Assembly: GCA_001443375.1 (NCBI GenBank)
Contig: LDXM01000004.1
Location: 75,266 to 139,265 of the forward strand
Reading direction: 5' to 3'
DNA from: Chloroflexi bacterium CSP1-4
GTDB lineage: Bacteria > Chloroflexota > Limnocylindria > Limnocylindrales > CSP1-4
DNA: 64,000 nucleotides
Shown here: piece after piece, positions 11,362 through 22,964 of the stretch
Layout: each line of letters opens with the position of its first letter
Position numbering within the stretch: position 1 is the stretch's first letter
Notes under the pieces: generated by a model
Told to the model about the DNA's origin: nothing
Database searches by the model: none
The model's input: the letters and a program-made list of their open reading frames with translations, nothing else
Translations under genes and position numbers: made by a program

Positions 11362-13035
11362 TCACCAGGCGCTCGGCGCACCCTCCGAGCGGGGGTCGGT
11401 GGCTGCCGCGAAGGCCGTCCGCCCGGGATCGTCGGGGGCCGCGGGATCGCGCACTAGCTCGATGGCATGGCAGTGGCCCATGCCACGGTCGAATGGCGCC
11501 GCGAGCCGCACGTCATGACCGCGGGCGCGCAGTCCGTCGGCCACCGCGGGCCGGAAGCGGGACTCCAGCCTCGTCAGCGACGGCGGGCCGTAATGCTCCT
11601 CGACGTCGGCCGCCCAGCGCGGCGCCGCGACGGCGGTGGCCACGTCGAGGCCGCCGTCCACGAGCGCGGAGACGACCTGCGCGAAGACCTGCGGCTGCAC
11701 CTCGCCGCCCATCGACCCGTGCACGACCCATGGCCGCCCGTCGCGGAAGAGCATCCCCGGTGTCAGCGTGTGCATCGTCCGCTTTCGCGGCGCGAGGACG
11801 TTCGGATGCGCCGCGTCGAGGCTGAAGAAGGCCCCACGGTCCTGGTAGGCGATGCCGGTCTCGGGATCGACGAGCCCGCTCCCGAAGCCGCGGTAGTTCG
11901 ATTCGATGAGGCTGACGACGCCGCCCCAGCGGTCGGCCGTGGCGAGGTAGACGGTGCCACCGCCGCGCGGCAGGGTCATGGGCACGGGTGGCGTCGCGCG
12001 CTCGGGGTCGATGCGGGCCGCCAGCGCGGACGCCCGGTCCGCGGAGAGGAACTCGTCGAGGGCGCCGGGTGCCATCGCCTCGGGGTCGGTCAGCAGCCGG
12101 TCGCGATCGGCCAGCGTGAGCCGGGCGGCTTCCAGCCCCAGGTGGACCCAGCGCGGATCGTCCACCCCGCGGCCGTCGAAGGCCTCGGGTGGCGGTGGGT
12201 CGAACCGCTCCAGGACGTTCAGCAGCTCCAGCGCGATGGGGCCGCAGCTGTTCGGTGGGTGGCTGGCGGCGACGACGCCGCGGTACTCGGTGCGGATGGG
12301 CTCGGTCCACGTCGAGCGATGGTCGGCCAGGTCGCCGGCGCCGAGCGGGGCGCCGCTCAGGGCCAGGTACGCCGCCGCCCGTCGAGCGAGCGAGCCGCTG
12401 TACGCCGCGTCGGGACCCTCGCCGGCGAGGCGCCGCAGTGACGCGGCCAGGCCGGTGGGCGCGACCCGTTCGCCGGGCCTCCATGGCCGGCCGTGCGGCC
12501 GGAATACCCGGGCCCAGTCGGAGTCGGTCCCGAAGACGCCCGCTGCACCCTCGATGATGGAACACCAGGCGGGACTCGCGGCGAAGCCCTCGGCCAGCTC
12601 GACCGCCGGCGCGAGCAGGTCCGGCCAGCTGAGGCGCCCGAACCTTGCGTGGGCATCCCCCCAGGAGCGGATGGCGCCGGGCACCGTGACGGTCCACGGT
12701 CCGCGCAGCGGCATCCGGTCGCCGAGCGCCGCGCGGGCGCCGGCAAGGCTGGCCGCCGCGCCGGAGCGGCCGCTGCCGTTGAGTCCGTGGAGCGCGTCGC
12801 CGTCCCAGATCAGCCAGAAGGCGTCCCCGCCGAGCCCGCAGGAGTGGGCGGCCACGACGGCCAGCGCCGCGTTCGTGGCGATCGCCGCGTCCACGGCGGT
12901 CCCGCCTGCGCGGAGCACGCCGAGGCCGGCCGCGCTGGCGAGGTGGTGCGGGCTGACGACCGCGCCGTGTCGCCCCCAGGCGGGTCGTGCCGGGACGTCG
13001 GCCGACGGGACGTCGTGGCGGCGCGGGGCGGGCAT
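11362..13035 (-). CDS. ggt: gamma-glutamyltransferase family protein (Ntn hydrolase), no signal peptide
   Basis: GGT-type pro-enzyme motifs (GGGTVYLATADRWGGVVSLIESNYRGFGSGLVDPETGI, MHTLTPGMLF). Length is 557 aa. ATG at 13035 overlaps the HK stop by 1 nt (TGATG). Confidence 0.85.
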   Translation of the reverse strand: MPAPRRHDVPSADVPARPAWGRHGAVVSPHHLASAAGLGVLRAGGTAVDAAIATNAALAVVAAHSCGLGGDAFWLIWDGDALHGLNGSGRSGAAASLAGARAALGDRMPLRGPWTVTVPGAIRSWGDAHARFGRLSWPDLLAPAVELAEGFAASPAWCSIIEGAAGVFGTDSDWARVFRPHGRPWRPGERVAPTGLAASLRRLAGEGPDAAYSGSLARRAAAYLALSGAPLGAGDLADHRSTWTEPIRTEYRGVVAASHPPNSCGPIALELLNVLERFDPPPPEAFDGRGVDDPRWVHLGLEAARLTLADRDRLLTDPEAMAPGALDEFLSADRASALAARIDPERATPPVPMTLPRGGGTVYLATADRWGGVVSLIESNYRGFGSGLVDPETGIAYQDRGAFFSLDAAHPNVLAPRKRTMHTLTPGMLFRDGRPWVVHGSMGGEVQPQVFAQVVSALVDGGLDVATAVAAPRWAADVEEHYGPPSLTRLESRFRPAVADGLRARGHDVRLAAPFDRGMGHCHAIELVRDPAAPDDPGRTAFAAATDPRSEGAPSAW

Positions 13036-14464
13036 CAGGAGGCGGCCGACGGCGGCATGGTTGGCTCCGCTGCGAGCTGCGGCGTGCGGGGCAGGACCAC
13101 TCCCACCCGTGCGCCGCCGATGGGCAGATTCTCCGCGAATGCGCGCCCGCCGTGGGCGCGTGCCAGCTCGTCCACGATGGCCAGTCCCAGGCCGCTGCCG
13201 GGCCCGGAGCGCGACGGGTCGGCGCGGTAGAAACGTTCGAAGATGCGCCCCAGCGCCGCGCCGGCGATGCCCGGCCCATCGTCGCGCACCGCGAGCAGGA
13301 CCTCGCCGCCGGGCAGGGCCGCCGCCTCCACCGTCACGTGCCCCCCGGGCCGGGGCGCGTGCGCCAGCCCGTTGGCGACGAGGTTGCCAAGGATGCGCTC
13401 GACCGCGCTGCGGTCGGCGGCGCAGGGCAGGGGACCCGCCACCGGCAGCGCGGTGAGCTCCAAGCCCTCCGCGCCCGCCCGCGGTGCGAAGCGCTCCACG
13501 GCCGCGGCCGCCAGCTCCCCGCCGTCGAGCTGCTCGACGCGCAACGGCCGGCCCGCCTCGAGATCGGCGAGGTCGCCCAGGTCGTCCACCATCCGCTCCA
13601 GGCGCGACGTCTCGTCGGCGATGGCCCGGGCCGCCCTGGCCCAATCCGGGCCGTCGGCGGTGCCGTCGAGCAGCGCCTCGGCGAAGCCGCCGATGACCGT
13701 CAGGGGCGTGCGCAGGTCGTGGCGCAGGCCGGCCAGGAGGTCGGCCTGCGCCGTGCGGGCGTGGCCGACCTCGGCGCTCATGGCGTTGAAGGCGGCGCTC
13801 GCCCGGGCGACCTCCTGCGGGCCCTCCTCGGGCAGCGGTCCCGGCAGCCGGCCGCCCGCGACGCGGCCCGCCGCCGTCGCCAACCGGTCTAGCGGCCGCG
13901 TCACGGAGCCCGAGAGCCAGACCGCGAGCGGCGCGCCGACGACGGCGACGACAAGGCCCGCCACGAACAGGGCCCGGACGAGGTCGGCCAGCGCCCGACG
14001 TCCCGCATCGTCCGGCCGGGCGAGCACGAGCGCCCACGGGCCGCTCTGGGTAAGGGCGCCGCCGAACGGGGCGGCGACGTAGACGTACGAGCCCGTGCTC
14101 GGCACGGCGAACGTGCCACGATCGATCGTCCCCCGCGCGTTCGGTGGGTCGAGGTCCACGCGGTCCACGGGCAGGTCGTCGCCCAGGTCCACCACGCGGC
14201 CGCCCTGGTCCACGAGGAAGAGGCTGATGTCGCGAGCCGCGGTCTGGGCCGTCAGCTCGCGCAGGACGTTGCGCAGGCGAACTCCCTGTTCGATCCGCAG
14301 CCGGGCCTGCGAGACGAGGGGCACCGCAAGGTCGGACAGCGCGGCACTGTTGGCCTCTGCGTGGAGGTCGCGCAGGAGGACGAAGAGGACGCCGCCCAGT
14401 GCGAAGAGGATCGCCAGCGCCAGGAGCGCGAAGGCCCCCGCCACGCGGCCGCGCAGCGTCCTCA
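13035..14464 (-). CDS. sensor histidine kinase (two TM helices, HAMP, HisKA, HATPase_c)
   Basis: N-terminal TM helix (AFALLALAILFALGGVLFVLL) and H-box LRHDLRTPLTV. G-boxes GPGIAGAAL and GSGLGLAIV. ATG (14464-14462) overlaps the RR stop (ATGA). Confidence 0.85.
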
Positions 14465-15151
14465 TACCGGTCGCTCGCGGGGCGGCGGCACGAGCCGGTA
14501 GCCGACGCCGCGGACGGTCTCGATGGGCGGGCCGTCGCCGCCGAGCTTCGTGCGCAGGGCGGCCATATGGACGTCCACGGTGCGGGTTTCGCCGGGGAAG
14601 TCGGTGCCCCAGACTGACTCGAGGAGCACGTCGCGGGTCAGGACCACGCCGGGATCCCGCGCCATGGCGGCGAGAAGGTCGAACTCGCGCGGGCGCAGCT
14701 CGAGACGTCGCGAGCCGACGTAGGCCTCCCGACGGCGCGGGTCGACGCGCAGCGGGCCCACCTCGATGGGGCGTGTCCCTCGGGCGGCGCCGCCGGTGCG
14801 GCGCAGGATGGCGCGCACGCGGGCCACCAGCTCGCGGGGGTTGAACGGCTTGACGAGGTAGTCGTCGGCCCCCAGCTCGAGGCCGACGATGCGGTCCACG
14901 TCGTCGCCGCGCGCGGTGAGCATGAGGATGGGCGTATCGCCGCGGCGGCGCAGCTCGCGCGTGACCTCCCAGCCGTCGAGCTCGGGGAGCATGAGGTCGA
15001 GCACGACCAGGTCGGGGTCGTGGCGTTCGGCGAGGCTGAGCGCCTCGCGGCCGTCGCGGGCGGCCACGACCGCGAAGCCGTCCTTCTCCAGGTACAGCTT
15101 CACCAGCTCGACGATGTTCCGTTCGTCGTCGACGACGAGGATCGTCTTCAT
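14462..15151 (-). CDS. OmpR/PhoB-family response regulator
   Basis: Receiver MKTILVVDDE...DLVVLDLMLP...LTARGD plus a winged-helix C-terminal domain (VHMAALRTKL...VRGVGYRL). Length is 229 aa. TATCCT lies 7 nt upstream of the ATG. Confidence 0.9.
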   Translation of the reverse strand: MKTILVVDDERNIVELVKLYLEKDGFAVVAARDGREALSLAERHDPDLVVLDLMLPELDGWEVTRELRRRGDTPILMLTARGDDVDRIVGLELGADDYLVKPFNPRELVARVRAILRRTGGAARGTRPIEVGPLRVDPRRREAYVGSRRLELRPREFDLLAAMARDPGVVLTRDVLLESVWGTDFPGETRTVDVHMAALRTKLGGDGPPIETVRGVGYRLVPPPRERPV

Positions 15152-19770: not shown

Positions 19771-19959
19771 TCAGCCCGGGTCGGCCGCGAGGCGCGACCC
19801 GAGCCGGACCATCGAGTGGCCGAGGCGCCGCCGGAGAGACGGCTGCGGTCGGCTCCGGGCTTGGTGGGTGAGATGGCGCCGGGCCTCCGCGGCCCGGCGC
19901 AGGTCGTCGATGCGGCGCTCGTGGAGGCGCCGCACCAGGCGGTCGTCGTGGACGAACAC
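19771..19959 (-). CDS. small basic protein (62 aa, pI very high) between the ABC ATPase and permease genes
   Basis: GTG at 19959 with AGGAG and 7-nt spacing. It starts 18 nt after the ATPase stop and ends 19 nt before the permease ATG. Sequence VFVHDDRLVRRLHERRIDDLRRAAEARRHLTHQARSRPQPSLRRRLGHSMVRLGSRLAADPG. Confidence 0.35.
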   Translation of the reverse strand: MFVHDDRLVRRLHERRIDDLRRAAEARRHLTHQARSRPQPSLRRRLGHSMVRLGSRLAADPG

Positions 19960-20894: not shown

Positions 20895-20996
20895 GGGTCG
20901 TGCTCCTTGGTGGGTGCGATCGAGTCGAACGAGGTGGACGGGCCCCCGCGAAGGCGGGACGTTCGGCTTTCGATGGCACCCCGCAGGGAGCGGGGC

Positions 20997-21033
20997 AACA
21001 AAAAAGCCGGGGGGCCGATCCGGGCCCTCCGGC
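20997..21033 (-). terminator. intrinsic terminator (minus strand) between the 33-aa ORF and the ABC operon
   Basis: Minus strand reads GCCGGAGGGCC-CGGATC-GGCCCCCCGGC (10/11 bp stem) followed by TTTTTTGTT. This is the only A/T run of that length in the region. Confidence 0.6.
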
Positions 21034-21064
21034 TCCAGCGTCCTGGCGGCTTGGCCGCCTGTCG

Positions 21065-21166
21065 CTAGGTCGTGAAGGGCACAGATCTCCCGCTGTCGGC
21101 GGCGCCGAGAGGCGCGGCCGTCCGCAGCCGGAAGGCCACGGCGCTGGAGCGGAAGTTGGGCGACAT
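21065..21166 (-). CDS. small ORF, 33 aa (MSPNFRSSAVAFRLRTAAPLGAADSGRSVPFTT); candidate leader peptide or small protein
   Basis: ATG at 21166 with AAGGAG SD (plus ctcctt 21179-21184, 12-nt spacing). A promoter lies 40 nt upstream and a terminator 30 nt downstream. It is on the same strand and directly upstream of the ABC ATPase gene. Confidence 0.4.
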   Translation of the reverse strand: MSPNFRSSAVAFRLRTAAPLGAADSGRSVPFTT

Positions 21167-21213
21167 CTGTGCTGACGACTCCTTTCCCGGCGCGCGGCTG
21201 GCGCGCCGCCGGC

Positions 21214-21243
21214 AGGATAGGTGAGCGGGCGGTCGGATGTCAA
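21214..21243 (-). promoter_or_regulatory. sigma70-type promoter TTGACA-N18-TATCCT driving the 33-aa ORF transcript
   Basis: Minus strand has TTGACA (plus 21238-21243), an 18-nt spacer, and TATCCT (plus 21214-21219). A GGCGCGC-cagcc-GCGCGCC hairpin lies at the predicted 5' end of the transcript. Confidence 0.5.
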
Positions 21244-21350
21244 CCAGCTGTGCGCATCCTTGTGGACGGCCAGCTGTGCGCATCCTGTTGATGGGCTGAG
21301 CGCATCCTGCTGTGCGCATCCTGTGCGCATCCGTGTTGGTGTGCGCATCC
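21244..21350. repeat. array of six direct repeats (A/T)GCGCATCC immediately upstream of the -35 element
   Basis: Copies at 21251-21259, 21277-21285, 21299-21307, 21313-21321, 21324-21332 and 21342-21350, all in the same orientation. The first two are embedded in a 17-bp duplication CCAGCTGTGCGCATCCT (21244-21260, 21270-21286). The nearest copy is 7 nt from the -35 hexamer. Confidence 0.6.
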
Positions 21351-21753
21351 TGTCGGATCTCGCGCCGGCGTCGCGCCGCGCTGCCGCATGCCAGCCGGTC
21401 ATGCGGGCGGCCGAACCCACGCTCATCTACGGCTCGATGAGGACCCATCGCAGGGCGGTCGAGCGCGGAATCGAGGGCTCGGATGCCCCGGGGGCATACG
21501 GCTGGCCGGGGCATACCCGGTGGTGGAGAGTGGGACAGCGGGGCGTACAACGTGCGCGGCGATCGCCCCGCTGTCCTGCCGTCGCGGGCGGACCCGGACG
21601 GGGTCAGGCCGCGCGGTGTCGGCAAGTTGACACTCCGCACGTCGGCACGGAGTCGGTATGCGCCCTGCCGATGCGCCTACACTTCGTCTCGTACCCGATC
21701 GCCACACGGCGAGGGACACATCGCCGAGCGGCGACGGACATGCGGAGACGACC

Positions 21754-22299
21754 ATGCGCGAGCAGGCCATCCAATTCGTAGGCGAGCCGGGAGCCGGCGG
21801 CATCGCCGCGACCGTCGACGCGGCCGAGGCGGAGCGCCTTCTCGCCCTGCTCGGGGGTACGGGGCAGATCGAGATCGGCCTGGCGGCCGAGGACGAAGAC
21901 GATGTCGAGGGCCACCTCTTCGGTGCCGGCGCCATCGTCAGACTCATCGTCCGCCGTCCCGACGGCGACGATGTCGAGGGGCACACCCTCACGCTGCGCT
22001 TCCCCACGGCGGCGGAAGCAGCCAGGTTCAAGACGAAGGTGCTTGCCGGCGGTCTGCTGGTCGGTACGCTCATCGCCCCGGCGGCCGGGCTGGCCGGCAC
22101 GCAGGCGCAGGCGGCGAGCCTCGCCGACGCGAACGTGGGCGAGGCGCCGGCGGCGACGGTCCAGTTCCAGGCGCCGATCTTCCACGACGACAAGCTGCAG
22201 ATCGTGCTGCCCGACGATGCGGCGAGTGGTGGCAGCGGCGAGAATAACCAGATGGGTTCGGCCGTCGCCTGGATGACGCGAACCGACAGCAGCCGCTGA
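21754..22299 (+). CDS. hypothetical protein with internal DDVEGH repeat and one predicted TM helix
   Basis: ATG at 21754 with GGAGAC 6 nt upstream. Length is 181 aa. Repeated segment DEDDVEGHLFGAGAIVRLIV / DGDDVEGHTLTLRFP. Diverse, real-looking composition. Confidence 0.5.
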   Translation: MREQAIQFVGEPGAGGIAATVDAAEAERLLALLGGTGQIEIGLAAEDEDDVEGHLFGAGAIVRLIVRRPDGDDVEGHTLTLRFPTAAEAARFKTKVLAGGLLVGTLIAPAAGLAGTQAQAASLADANVGEAPAATVQFQAPIFHDDKLQIVLPDDAASGGSGENNQMGSAVAWMTRTDSSR

Positions 22300-22352: not shown

Positions 22353-22964
22353 GTGCGACCGCCGTTTCGCATGACCGGCTCCGTCCGCGTTCCCTCGCCC
22401 CCGCGCTCGATCGTCGGCTGGATCGCGGCCGGGGCCCTCGATGCGAACCTGGCGGCCGTCGTCTGGCTGCTCGCCGAGGGCGGGGTCCCGGTCGTCGTCG
22501 CCGGTGCGCCGGGCAGCGGCCGCTCGGCGCTACTGGGCGCCATCCGCGAGCTGGCCGGTACGCGCAGTCGGCCAGCGCTGCCATCGCGCCTGCCGGGGAT
22601 CGTCGAGGGGCGCTCGCTCGAGGAGGTCCAGGCGCACTTCGCGGAGTCACCACTCGGCGCCAGCGAGGACGAGTTGCGCGGCCTCGGCGTCGTCCTCGTG
22701 CTCGAGGTCGCGGCGACCGGGCGGCGGCACGTGGTCGCCGCACACTACGTGCGACCCATTGAGCGCGACGGCCAGGGACACGTGCAGCGCCGGCCGCCGG
22801 CGCTGCTCGCGGCGTGGGATGCGGCGCGCGACGCCTTCGACGACTACGCCTGGGGGATCGTCACCGAACTCGCCGCGCGCGTCGGCCGCGAGCCTGCCGA
22901 GTTCGACCGTGAGCGGACGCGGCGGGCGACGCATCTGGCAGGCCTCGTCGCCACCCTGCACTGA
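22353..22964 (+). CDS. hypothetical protein with degenerate Walker-A-like motif (GAPGSGRSALL; Lys replaced by Arg)
   Basis: 203 aa. VVVAGAPGSGRSALLGAIRELAG resembles a P-loop without the lysine. No other recognisable motifs. Start is uncertain (GTG at 22353 or ATG at 22371). Confidence 0.35.
   Translation: MRPPFRMTGSVRVPSPPRSIVGWIAAGALDANLAAVVWLLAEGGVPVVVAGAPGSGRSALLGAIRELAGTRSRPALPSRLPGIVEGRSLEEVQAHFAESPLGASEDELRGLGVVLVLEVAATGRRHVVAAHYVRPIERDGQGHVQRRPPALLAAWDAARDAFDDYAWGIVTELAARVGREPAEFDRERTRRATHLAGLVATLH

Follow-up and report, generated by a model that had tools for sequence, protein, structure and literature searches.

A conserved, probable leader-peptide transcription attenuator upstream of an ABC exporter, RsgA and GNAT operon in Limnocylindria

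Introduction

The DNA described here (the window) is a stretch of 64,000 nucleotides from the genome of Chloroflexi bacterium CSP1-4, a member of the Limnocylindria (Chloroflexota). It contains an operon for a DrrA-like ABC ATPase, a small arginine-rich protein, an ABC-2 permease, the ribosome-assembly GTPase RsgA and a tandem-GNAT acetyltransferase. The proximal ~350 nt of the intergenic region upstream of this operon hold a promoter, a small open reading frame (ORF) with its Shine-Dalgarno (SD) sequence and an intrinsic terminator, and all elements of this leader are read, like the operon, on the minus strand. We conclude that the leader is probably a ribosome-mediated leader-peptide transcription attenuator of the exporter, small protein, RsgA and GNAT genes. 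The arrangement is far beyond chance, since 80 orthologous loci share the promoter, the frame of the ORF, the place of its stop and the terminator. An attenuator had been proposed in the initial annotation of this region, which was made from the window sequence alone; the conservation of the ORF, of its SD sequence, start and stop position and of a covarying terminator and antiterminator supports that proposal. It represents a class-wide family of such attenuators that had not been described before, built on an attenuation principle that is itself familiar. To our knowledge, few other well-supported cis-regulatory RNA elements have been described for the Limnocylindria, which are uncultured bacteria of soil and freshwater.

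Organization of the leader and its operon

The leader begins with a sigma-70-type promoter (21214..21243) composed of a -35 box, TTGACA (21243-21238), an 18-nt spacer and a -10 box, TATCCT (21219-21214). This near-consensus TTGACA-N18-TATCCT sequence, already picked out in the initial annotation, is the sole promoter-like site in 1.7 kb (shuffle mean, 0.1), and a site of the form TTGAC[AG]-N17/18-TANNNT is present 98-153 nt upstream of an invariant Gly codon of the leader ORF in 81 of 82 leader copies. To judge by the position of the boxes, the transcript would start near 21207, ~7 nt past TATCCT. A G+C hairpin (21188..21208; -17.4 kcal/mol, with a z score of only -1.5) is predicted at its 5' end; the hairpin had been annotated with 7 bp but has 8, and it could not be aligned across species. 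The SD sequence AAGGAG (21179..21184) and the leader ORF (21065..21166; 33 codons plus TAG, MSPNFRSSAVAFRLRTAAPLGAADSGRSVPFTT), the ATG of which lies 12 nt further on, follow where they had been annotated, and the ORF gives tblastn matches at the same position in relatives. The predicted end of the leader transcript is an intrinsic terminator (21000..21035) with a 12-bp stem containing one A-C mismatch (21035-21004), a 6-nt loop, CGGAUC, and a U6 tract (21005-21000). Its energy in the window, -24.7 kcal/mol (z, -2.8), agrees with the strong T6 terminator noted previously. A simple consensus terminator scan of the window returned 0 sites, presumably on account of the internal A-C mismatch, and the hairpin was identified by direct folding.

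The SD sequence (AAGGAG, 20908-20903) and the GTG start (20894) of the ABC ATPase gene lie ~100 nt beyond the terminator, as had been stated. From the terminator to the start of the ABC gene, neither the window nor any of 60 distinct scorable relatives showed a promoter-like site, which supports the attenuator. The operon genes are tightly packed on the same strand, and the order given by the initial annotation was recovered with Pfam and NCBIfam domains. The ATPase gene (20894-19977; 305 aa) matches PF00005 and scores 228 bits with the drrA model TIGR01188, below the cut-off of 312; the DrrA and DrrB models were both matched under their curated cut-offs. It is followed by the gene for the 62-aa Arg-rich protein (19771..19959), which was called as a gene and has no Pfam or NCBIfam match, and by those for the ABC-2 permease (19752-18952), the RsgA GTPase (18955-17840; TIGR00157, 159 bits against a cut-off of 100) and the tandem-GNAT acetyltransferase (17835-16822). 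The order of ATPase, short gap, permease, RsgA and GNAT is largely kept in the orthologous loci (permease, 78/80; GNAT, 64/80; RsgA, 56/80), and a small ORF is found between ATPase and permease in 73 of the loci examined, most of which share the C-terminal sequence RRxxGRxxVRxGxRLAAEP...ARSR. These small proteins form a family of ~65-100 aa with a C-terminal motif like RRxxGRxxVRxGxRLAAEPxLxPARSR (examples are L086:6846-7043 and L079:6808-7005).

Distribution of the leader

The exact ATPase sequence is carried by 21 contigs of soil-type metagenome assemblies in the European Nucleotide Archive (ENA). Six strain-level contigs (L001-L006) share 98% mean column identity with the window. Every substitution or indel among them is confined to the distal half of the spacer (21360-21753), and the segment from the direct repeats (described below) to the ABC start is identical apart from a change of repeat number in one contig; the contigs are so similar that they say nothing about selection. 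When one genome per species was scanned, 80 orthologous ATPase loci with 64-82% protein identity were obtained, nearly all from metagenome-assembled genomes (MAGs) of Limnocylindria or other Chloroflexota. With the window leader as query, blastn and tblastn matched 70 of these loci at the corresponding place upstream of the ATPase. A covariance model (R1) built from the 70-sequence alignment then detected the leader in all 80, at 47-133 bits and immediately upstream of the gene for the orthologous DrrA-like ATPase. In the window, R1 has a single match, which delimits the conserved leader core (20997..21122; 104.5 bits, E 2.5e-23). In contrast, 442 kb of unrelated metagenomic DNA (80 loci from a metagenome scan with a repeat word), used as a negative control, gave 0 matches. 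A scan of the leader against Rfam 15 at E<=10 returned only noise (best E, 0.14; all scores far under the gathering scores), and no description of the element was found in the literature searched. RNAalifold recovered merely 8 pairs from a MAFFT alignment, because the terminator columns are out of register between clades, and the covariance-model alignment was used instead. The model and the 82-sequence alignment can be used for genome annotation.

Tandem duplications that include the leader occur in two long-read MAG contigs, L047 (4044-5887 and 10963-12807) and L077 (368-4384 and 4398-8413), the copies being 98% and 94% identical. The upstream copy of the ABC genes in L077 matches in fragments, as if frameshifted. 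These duplications may be assembly artefacts or recent events.

Competing RNA helices

The most conserved nucleotides of the leader, GGGAGAUCUGYGCCC, are the codons G-R-S-V/A-P near the end of the ORF. Within them, GAUCUG(Y)GCCC is complementary to GGGC-CAGAUC of the terminator 5' arm and loop. In the window, the antiterminator 5' strand (region 2; GAUCUGUGCCC, 21077..21087) comprises the codons R-S-V-P, (A)GA-UCU-GUG-CCC, at positions -7 to -4 relative to the stop, and pairs with the 3' strand, GGGCCCGGAUC (21017..21027), which forms the top of the terminator 5' arm and the loop. Since GGGC is needed by both helices, antiterminator and terminator are mutually exclusive. An antiterminator covering the 3' end of the ORF, which the initial annotation had suggested looking for, is present here as a covarying helix (21087-21077 : 21027-21017).

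Across species the antiterminator is 93-96% paired. On a MAFFT alignment not fitted to any structure, 95.6% of cells are paired and 4 pairs are changed on both sides, whereas slid controls in that run, with P1, P2 (described below) and the antiterminator scored together, gave 28-52% paired cells. On an alignment fitted to the terminator form only, the antiterminator is 93.4% paired with 5 compensatory pairs, and for four of the five measures the observed values lay beyond all 500 shuffles; overall, slid controls for the antiterminator were 20-68% paired. The energy of the duplex is -14.8 kcal/mol for cognate and -12.6 kcal/mol for non-cognate strands, and -16.3 kcal/mol in the window. Co-changes between the strands can be followed by lineage and preserve the pairing: about eleven sequences combine GAGGUG with CCACC, several combine GAUCCG with CGGAUC, and single loci have GCAGUG with CACUG (L071), CAUCUG with CAGAUG (L033) and GGACCG with CGGUC (L019). 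In L026, a triple covariation (U46/A115/U130 of alignment A4), read from the alignment, combines a changed terminator-arm position with changes in its antiterminator and terminator partners. The terminator itself is 89.6% paired across the 82 copies, with 4 compensatory pairs, and the stem is followed by a T-rich tract of T4-T6 in most aligned relatives.

Two further hairpins are conserved. P1 (GCGCC-UCUC-GGCGC, 21102..21115) lies within the codons A-P-L-G-A; it has 70-74% of cells paired and compensatory changes at 5 of 5 pairs, for example GCACC/GGUGC, both at synonymous sites. P2 (GGCGGC-CAA-GCCGCC, 21045..21059; -11.9 kcal/mol, z -2.65) lies a few nucleotides past the stop codon and is 94% paired, with compensatory changes at 6 of 6 pairs. 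A helix P3 enclosing P2 (CUCG:CGAG) is not claimed; its register, judged by eye, differs between clades.

The covarying antiterminator bears on whether the promoter, ORF and terminator could instead be an independent gene, for a secreted or modified peptide handled by the ABC exporter or for a trans-acting small RNA. Its own promoter and terminator would give such a gene a discrete RNA of ~205 nt, the peptide is conserved, and attenuator RNAs and leader peptides can act in trans (peTrpL papers). However, an antiterminator that covaries and competes with the terminator makes sense only if read-through matters, and the operon has no promoter-like site of its own downstream of the terminator. Nor does the locus resemble one for a ribosomally synthesized and post-translationally modified peptide (RiPP): the peptide has no signal-like or double-glycine leader, the operon and its neighbours encode no maturation enzyme and no exporter or other transporter with a peptidase domain, and the exporter is of the ABC-2 type. 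The export of the peptide by the adjacent transporter, offered as an alternative by the initial annotation, is not upheld, and we give scarcely any credence to an independent gene.

Coding signatures of the leader ORF

In the relatives, an in-frame ATG (GTG in one clade) is found 17-26 codons upstream of the invariant Gly codon, usually 10-12 nt past an SD sequence of the GGAGG or AGGAG type, and SD-preceded ATG or GTG starts number 39 in frame against 5 out of frame. The stop lies exactly 8 codons after the invariant Gly (GGG) codon in 67 of 70 copies (TAG in 46, TGA in 21 and TAA in 3), whereas the first stop in the other two frames is scattered in position. The openness of the frame is, on its own, weak coding evidence in G+C-rich DNA, since 58 of 79 leaders have an alternative frame that also stays open across the same 27 codons. 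The conserved start, frame and stop do carry coding signatures, and on these grounds the leader ORF is translated.

The leader peptides have 27-33 residues in most copies and share a profile in which a stretch of hydrophobic residues is followed by R at -20/-19 and by A-P-x-G at -16 to -13, and the C terminus, directly before the stop, is G(-8) R S V/A P(-4) x S S/R. The conservation of the peptide in relatives that the initial annotation anticipated is accordingly present, both in the ORF with its stop column and in the G-R-S-V/A-P-x-S-S/R motif. Gly(-8) is found in 77 of 77 peptides, with all four Gly codons in use; Pro(-4) is found in 76 of 77, and its distance to the stop is fixed at three codons. 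Arg(-19) is encoded by CGC, CGG, CGA or CGT, Arg(-7) by AGA, CGA, AGG or CGG and Ser(-2) by TCG or AGC. As several residues are kept through unrelated codons, the peptide itself is under selection, in addition to the RNA. The constraints on peptide and RNA overlap on the same 15 nucleotides, which makes the leader a compact test case.

These coding signatures also bear on a translation-independent switch, that is, a riboswitch or the target of an RNA-binding protein, with an ORF that is incidental to a conserved, G+C-rich RNA. The alternative helices, P1 and P2 are conserved as RNA structures, the alternative frame is open in most leaders, as noted above, and the operon encodes a conserved Arg-rich small protein, all of which would be compatible with such a switch. 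Against it stand the alternation of TAG, TGA and TAA in one column, the in-frame SD sequences and starts and the synonymous-codon patterns, which point to translation. Furthermore, the Rfam scan at E<=10 gave no match, loops and linkers vary in both sequence and length, no core resembling a ligand pocket (conserved and unpaired or at a junction, as in a riboswitch) is conserved, and the conserved nucleotides are explained by the two helices, an SD-like GGGAG and the codons. A switch that works without translation therefore seems highly improbable.

Ribosome position and the predicted switch

The arrangement of these elements suggests how a ribosome could set the fate of the transcript. Transcription would start ~7 nt past TATCCT, and the 33-codon leader ORF would then be translated. 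The terminator 5' arm could pair with the 3' arm, in which case the hairpin and U6 would end the transcript at ~21000; if GAUCUGUGCCC were paired with GGGCCCGGAUC instead, this antiterminator would allow RNA polymerase to read through into the operon. The antiterminator 5' strand lies three codons before the stop, and its partner emerges ~55-70 nt later. The choice of fold may hence be set by the position of the ribosome as the terminator 5' arm emerges. If it had come to about the last 10 codons, or were waiting at the stop, it would cover the antiterminator strand, so that the terminator would form and the operon would be OFF. A ribosome delayed in the first two thirds of the ORF, or absent, would leave the strand free, and the antiterminator would turn the operon ON.

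We modelled this logic of termination and read-through in ensembles of the nascent RNA, ending at the terminator loop, of 77 distinct leaders. The ribosome was represented by a footprint that extended from -12 to +14 nt relative to the P site. Without a ribosome, the mean modelled antiterminator probability was 0.78 (0.95 for the window). For P-site positions from the start codon up to Gly(-13) it was 0.82-0.90, and it dropped to 0.24 with the P site at -10 and to 0.00-0.02 at -8 or at the last codon.

Several points weigh against an attenuator that works in this way. The footprint results follow in part from the masking assumption, and the start at ~21207, the 3' end at ~21000 and read-through are predictions made for an uncultured organism. 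The SD-to-ATG spacing of 12 nt in the window is long. The sequences compared are phylogenetically related, and the shuffle statistics consequently overstate their independence. Some of the conservation seen in the peptide is imposed by base pairing of the RNA (AGA-UCU-GUG-CCC), and the invariant C-terminal motif is not accounted for by a simple model in which ribosomes stall early. Finally, an anti-antiterminator (region 1) is weakly supported: the best upstream partner is often at the start codon (GCACAGAUG in the window group and GUGCGCGAUCU in another clade, for example), and the mean z is -0.38 against the whole 5' leader, not clearly beyond shuffles, and -0.65 when the search is restricted to the translation-initiation region, with 29% of leaders at p<=0.05. 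If there is no anti-antiterminator, the untranslated default would be ON.

The signal sensed by the leader

Slowed or arrested translation of the leader, for instance by ribosome-targeting antibiotics acting at the conserved patch of basic residues, which in the window is R-L-R, is our best guess for the signal; exporter, GTPase and acetyltransferase would then be induced jointly. This guess is based on the position of R-L-R and on the content of the operon, namely, an exporter, a 30S-maturation GTPase and an acetyltransferase. The window peptide has R-L-R at -21 to -19, and RLR has been described as a signature of macrolide-responsive leader peptides (PMC6310831). A motif R/K-x-R/K (+x+) is present in 23 of 77 distinct peptides, and at the R-L-R position it is observed 19 times, compared with 4.6 in shuffles; its absence from most peptides weighs against this choice of signal. 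In the footprint model, a stall at R-L-R would leave the antiterminator free. The proposal of the initial annotation that translational stress or antibiotics act through a logic like that of bmrB is plausible, as it fits both the modelled geometry and the R-L-R of the window.

A stall at -21 to -19 would also be expected if the leader sensed the supply of arginine in the manner of the trp and his leaders, with uncharged tRNA-Arg arresting the ribosome at these Arg codons and causing read-through. R or K is found at -19 or -20 in 54 of 77 peptides, and Arg, at 15%, outnumbers every other residue in the variable N-terminal part. However, there are one to three Arg codons rather than a run, they are the common CGC, CGG and CGA, and Arg is abundant in any high-G+C proteome. 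The exporter, RsgA and GNAT are, moreover, unrelated to arginine metabolism, and we regard an arginine sensor as very improbable indeed.

The conservation of the C terminus raises another alternative, in which G-R-S-V/A-P-x-S-S/R-stop is an arrest sequence of the TnaC or SpeFL type and the sensor is the peptide in the exit tunnel rather than the general speed of translation. A small molecule or cellular state would then set the dwell of the ribosome near the stop, a long arrest leading to termination and a fast release to read-through. The amino-acid conservation beyond the needs of the RNA (Gly(-8), Pro(-4), the TCG/AGC codons of Ser(-2) and the fixed distance from Pro to stop) would be explained, and a ribosome near the stop covers GUGCCC, which in the model abolishes the antiterminator when the ribosome is at the last codon. 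Yet the helix places a constraint of its own on much of the motif (AGA-UCU-GUG-CCC), so that selection on peptide and on RNA is not fully separable; the content of the operon suggests no ligand; and known stop-codon arrest acts on Rho-dependent termination, whereas the terminator here is intrinsic. We consider a TnaC- or SpeFL-type arrest unlikely. It is conceivable, if doubtful, that the invariant C terminus and the basic patch together form a new nascent-chain sensor of a small molecule or of the state of the ribosome (immature or drug-bound 30S/50S subunits, for example), which would set the time for which the antiterminator is shielded. Such a sensor would give the Limnocylindria a feedback loop from translation quality to the expression of RsgA, the exporter and the acetyltransferase.

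Attenuation in response to slowed leader translation, the signal we favour, would place RsgA, a GTPase of ribosome assembly, together with a DrrAB-like exporter and a GNAT in one unit apparently responsive to the translation of a short ORF. The unit is thus a testable lead on the sensing of translation stress or antibiotics in Limnocylindria.

Comparison with known attenuators

The leader has the features by which attenuators are recognized: past the promoter and ahead of the first structural gene, it has a short ORF served by a ribosome-binding site, an intrinsic terminator at which termination is predicted, a mutually exclusive antiterminator and an overlap of the ORF with one of the switching strands. 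It has neither the run of codons nor the pathway genes of an amino-acid biosynthesis leader. The trp, his, leu and phe leaders (the Yanofsky model) are the classical attenuators of amino-acid operons (summarised in PMC4191407). With these the Limnocylindria leader shares a promoter, a leader ORF, alternative hairpins and a U-tract terminator, as well as the selection of the fold by ribosome position, which here is predicted. It differs in the lack of a run of regulatory codons, in downstream genes that are not biosynthetic, in an ORF that runs through the antiterminator strand instead of stopping before it, and in a pairing between regions 1 and 2 that is not clearly present.

TnaC and SpeFL block release at the stop codon and so hide a Rho entry site. 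They resemble the Limnocylindria peptide in being short leaders with conserved residues, including a Pro near the stop, and in the constant distance to the stop. Our leader is set apart by its intrinsic terminator and base-paired antiterminator and by the lack of a candidate ligand, and it is not known to share any sequence similarity with them.

The parallel drawn by the initial annotation was bmrB-bmrCD of Bacillus subtilis, where an ABC multidrug exporter is controlled by ribosome-mediated transcriptional attenuation, slowed translation of the leader has been proposed to favour the antiterminator and induction by antibiotics has been shown (PMC4191407). Both systems have a short translated ORF just upstream of ABC exporter genes and a terminator and antiterminator that overlap the ORF. 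There is, however, no sequence relationship between the leaders. The bmrB ORF has ~53 aa with the terminator inside it, whereas the Limnocylindria ORFs have 27-33 codons, only the antiterminator 5' strand lies inside them, and the terminator is ~30 nt past the stop. In addition, BmrCD is a type-I heterodimeric exporter, in contrast to the DrrAB-like ABC-2 system with RsgA and GNAT in its operon, and antibiotic induction, which is an observation for bmrB, is a conjecture for the Limnocylindria leader.

A leader-peptide attenuator whose leader carries RLR, rli80-hflXr, has also been reported in Listeria monocytogenes (PMC6310831). It controls a ribosome-associated GTPase, and R-L-R is found upstream of the switch in the window leader too. 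The logic predicted here, with a delayed ribosome favouring read-through, agrees with that put forward for rli80-hflXr as well as for bmrB-bmrCD. The rli80 ORF has 14 codons, compared with 27-33 here, and HflXr is a ribosome-splitting factor while RsgA is a 30S-maturation GTPase. The G-R-S-V-P-x-S-S C terminus has no counterpart in rli80, and RLR or +x+ is present in just 23 of 77 peptides in our set.

Spacer between the terminator and the ABC gene

The spacer from the terminator to the ABC gene (20900..20995) is itself structured, with a fold of -41.4 kcal/mol (z, -3.4) in the window in which CUCCCU pairs with the SD sequence of the ABC gene. The spacers of relatives (among them L086:5848-5935 and L068:5887-5974) have a hairpin, GAUGCC...GGCAUC, directly after the U tract, and a long hairpin, GAGCCGCG...CGCGGCUC, which is followed by a pyrimidine-rich tail and has 7 conserved outer pairs, 3 of them compensatory. 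In its 5' arm, the long hairpin is similar to the first terminator. This structure may serve as a second terminator, in translational control or as a stabiliser.

DNA upstream of the promoter

Six direct repeats (21249..21354; consensus CAGGATGCGCACAG, core GGATGCGCACA(G)) end 5 nt upstream of the -35 box. The word GGATGCGCACA, with <=1 mismatch, occurs 10 times in the window compared with 2.4 expected, and six of these are the clustered copies at 21249-21354. A contig of the same species, L002 (5090-6010), has five GGATGCGCACAG units rather than six; one 11-bp unit, in the region of 21322-21332 of the window, is absent. Neither the closest relatives, L007 and L008, nor any other locus examined has the repeats. 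They are present as the initial annotation had stated, but they are species specific and lie outside the conserved unit. Most likely they bind a transcription factor that acts on the same promoter. A metagenome scan for GGATGCGCACA-N(0-30)-GGATGCGCACA returned 94 unrelated stretches, none from this organism, and was uninformative on a regulon.

In 19 of 81 distinct upstream regions of relatives, there is an operator-like box. It reads TACGTCATCTG(T/A)CGC, in part a palindrome (CGTCA-TC-TGACG), or, in a different clade, TACGTCGTTTGTC. In most of these regions the box ends 48 or 61 nt upstream of the predicted transcript start (L084, L081, L055, L061 and L064 are examples), and coding controls contained 0 boxes of either form. 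The TACGTCATCTG(T/A)CGC box is absent from the intergenic region of the window, where the six GGATGCGCACAG repeats fill that space. The box of the relatives may be the operator for a transcription factor at the same promoter. An OmpR-type response regulator (14462-15151) and a histidine kinase (13035-14465) are encoded on the same, minus strand a few kilobases downstream of the operon, and an OmpR-type response regulator is also close to the operon in six relatives. The OmpR-type regulator is a candidate binder of the direct repeats.

No conserved feature was found in the distal ~390 nt of the spacer (21360-21753). This part of the window contains a perfect 13-bp inverted repeat, GGACAGCGGGGCG / CGCCCCGCTGTCC (21533-21545 and 21564-21576, with 18-nt spacing), the left arm of which differs in other strains; it is probably not functional. 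Beyond it lie two divergent plus-strand genes, at 21754-22299 (181 aa) and 22353-22964 (203 aa), neither of which matches any family at the level of its curated cut-off. In 36 of 80 relatives, the 203-aa protein is also encoded upstream of the operon.

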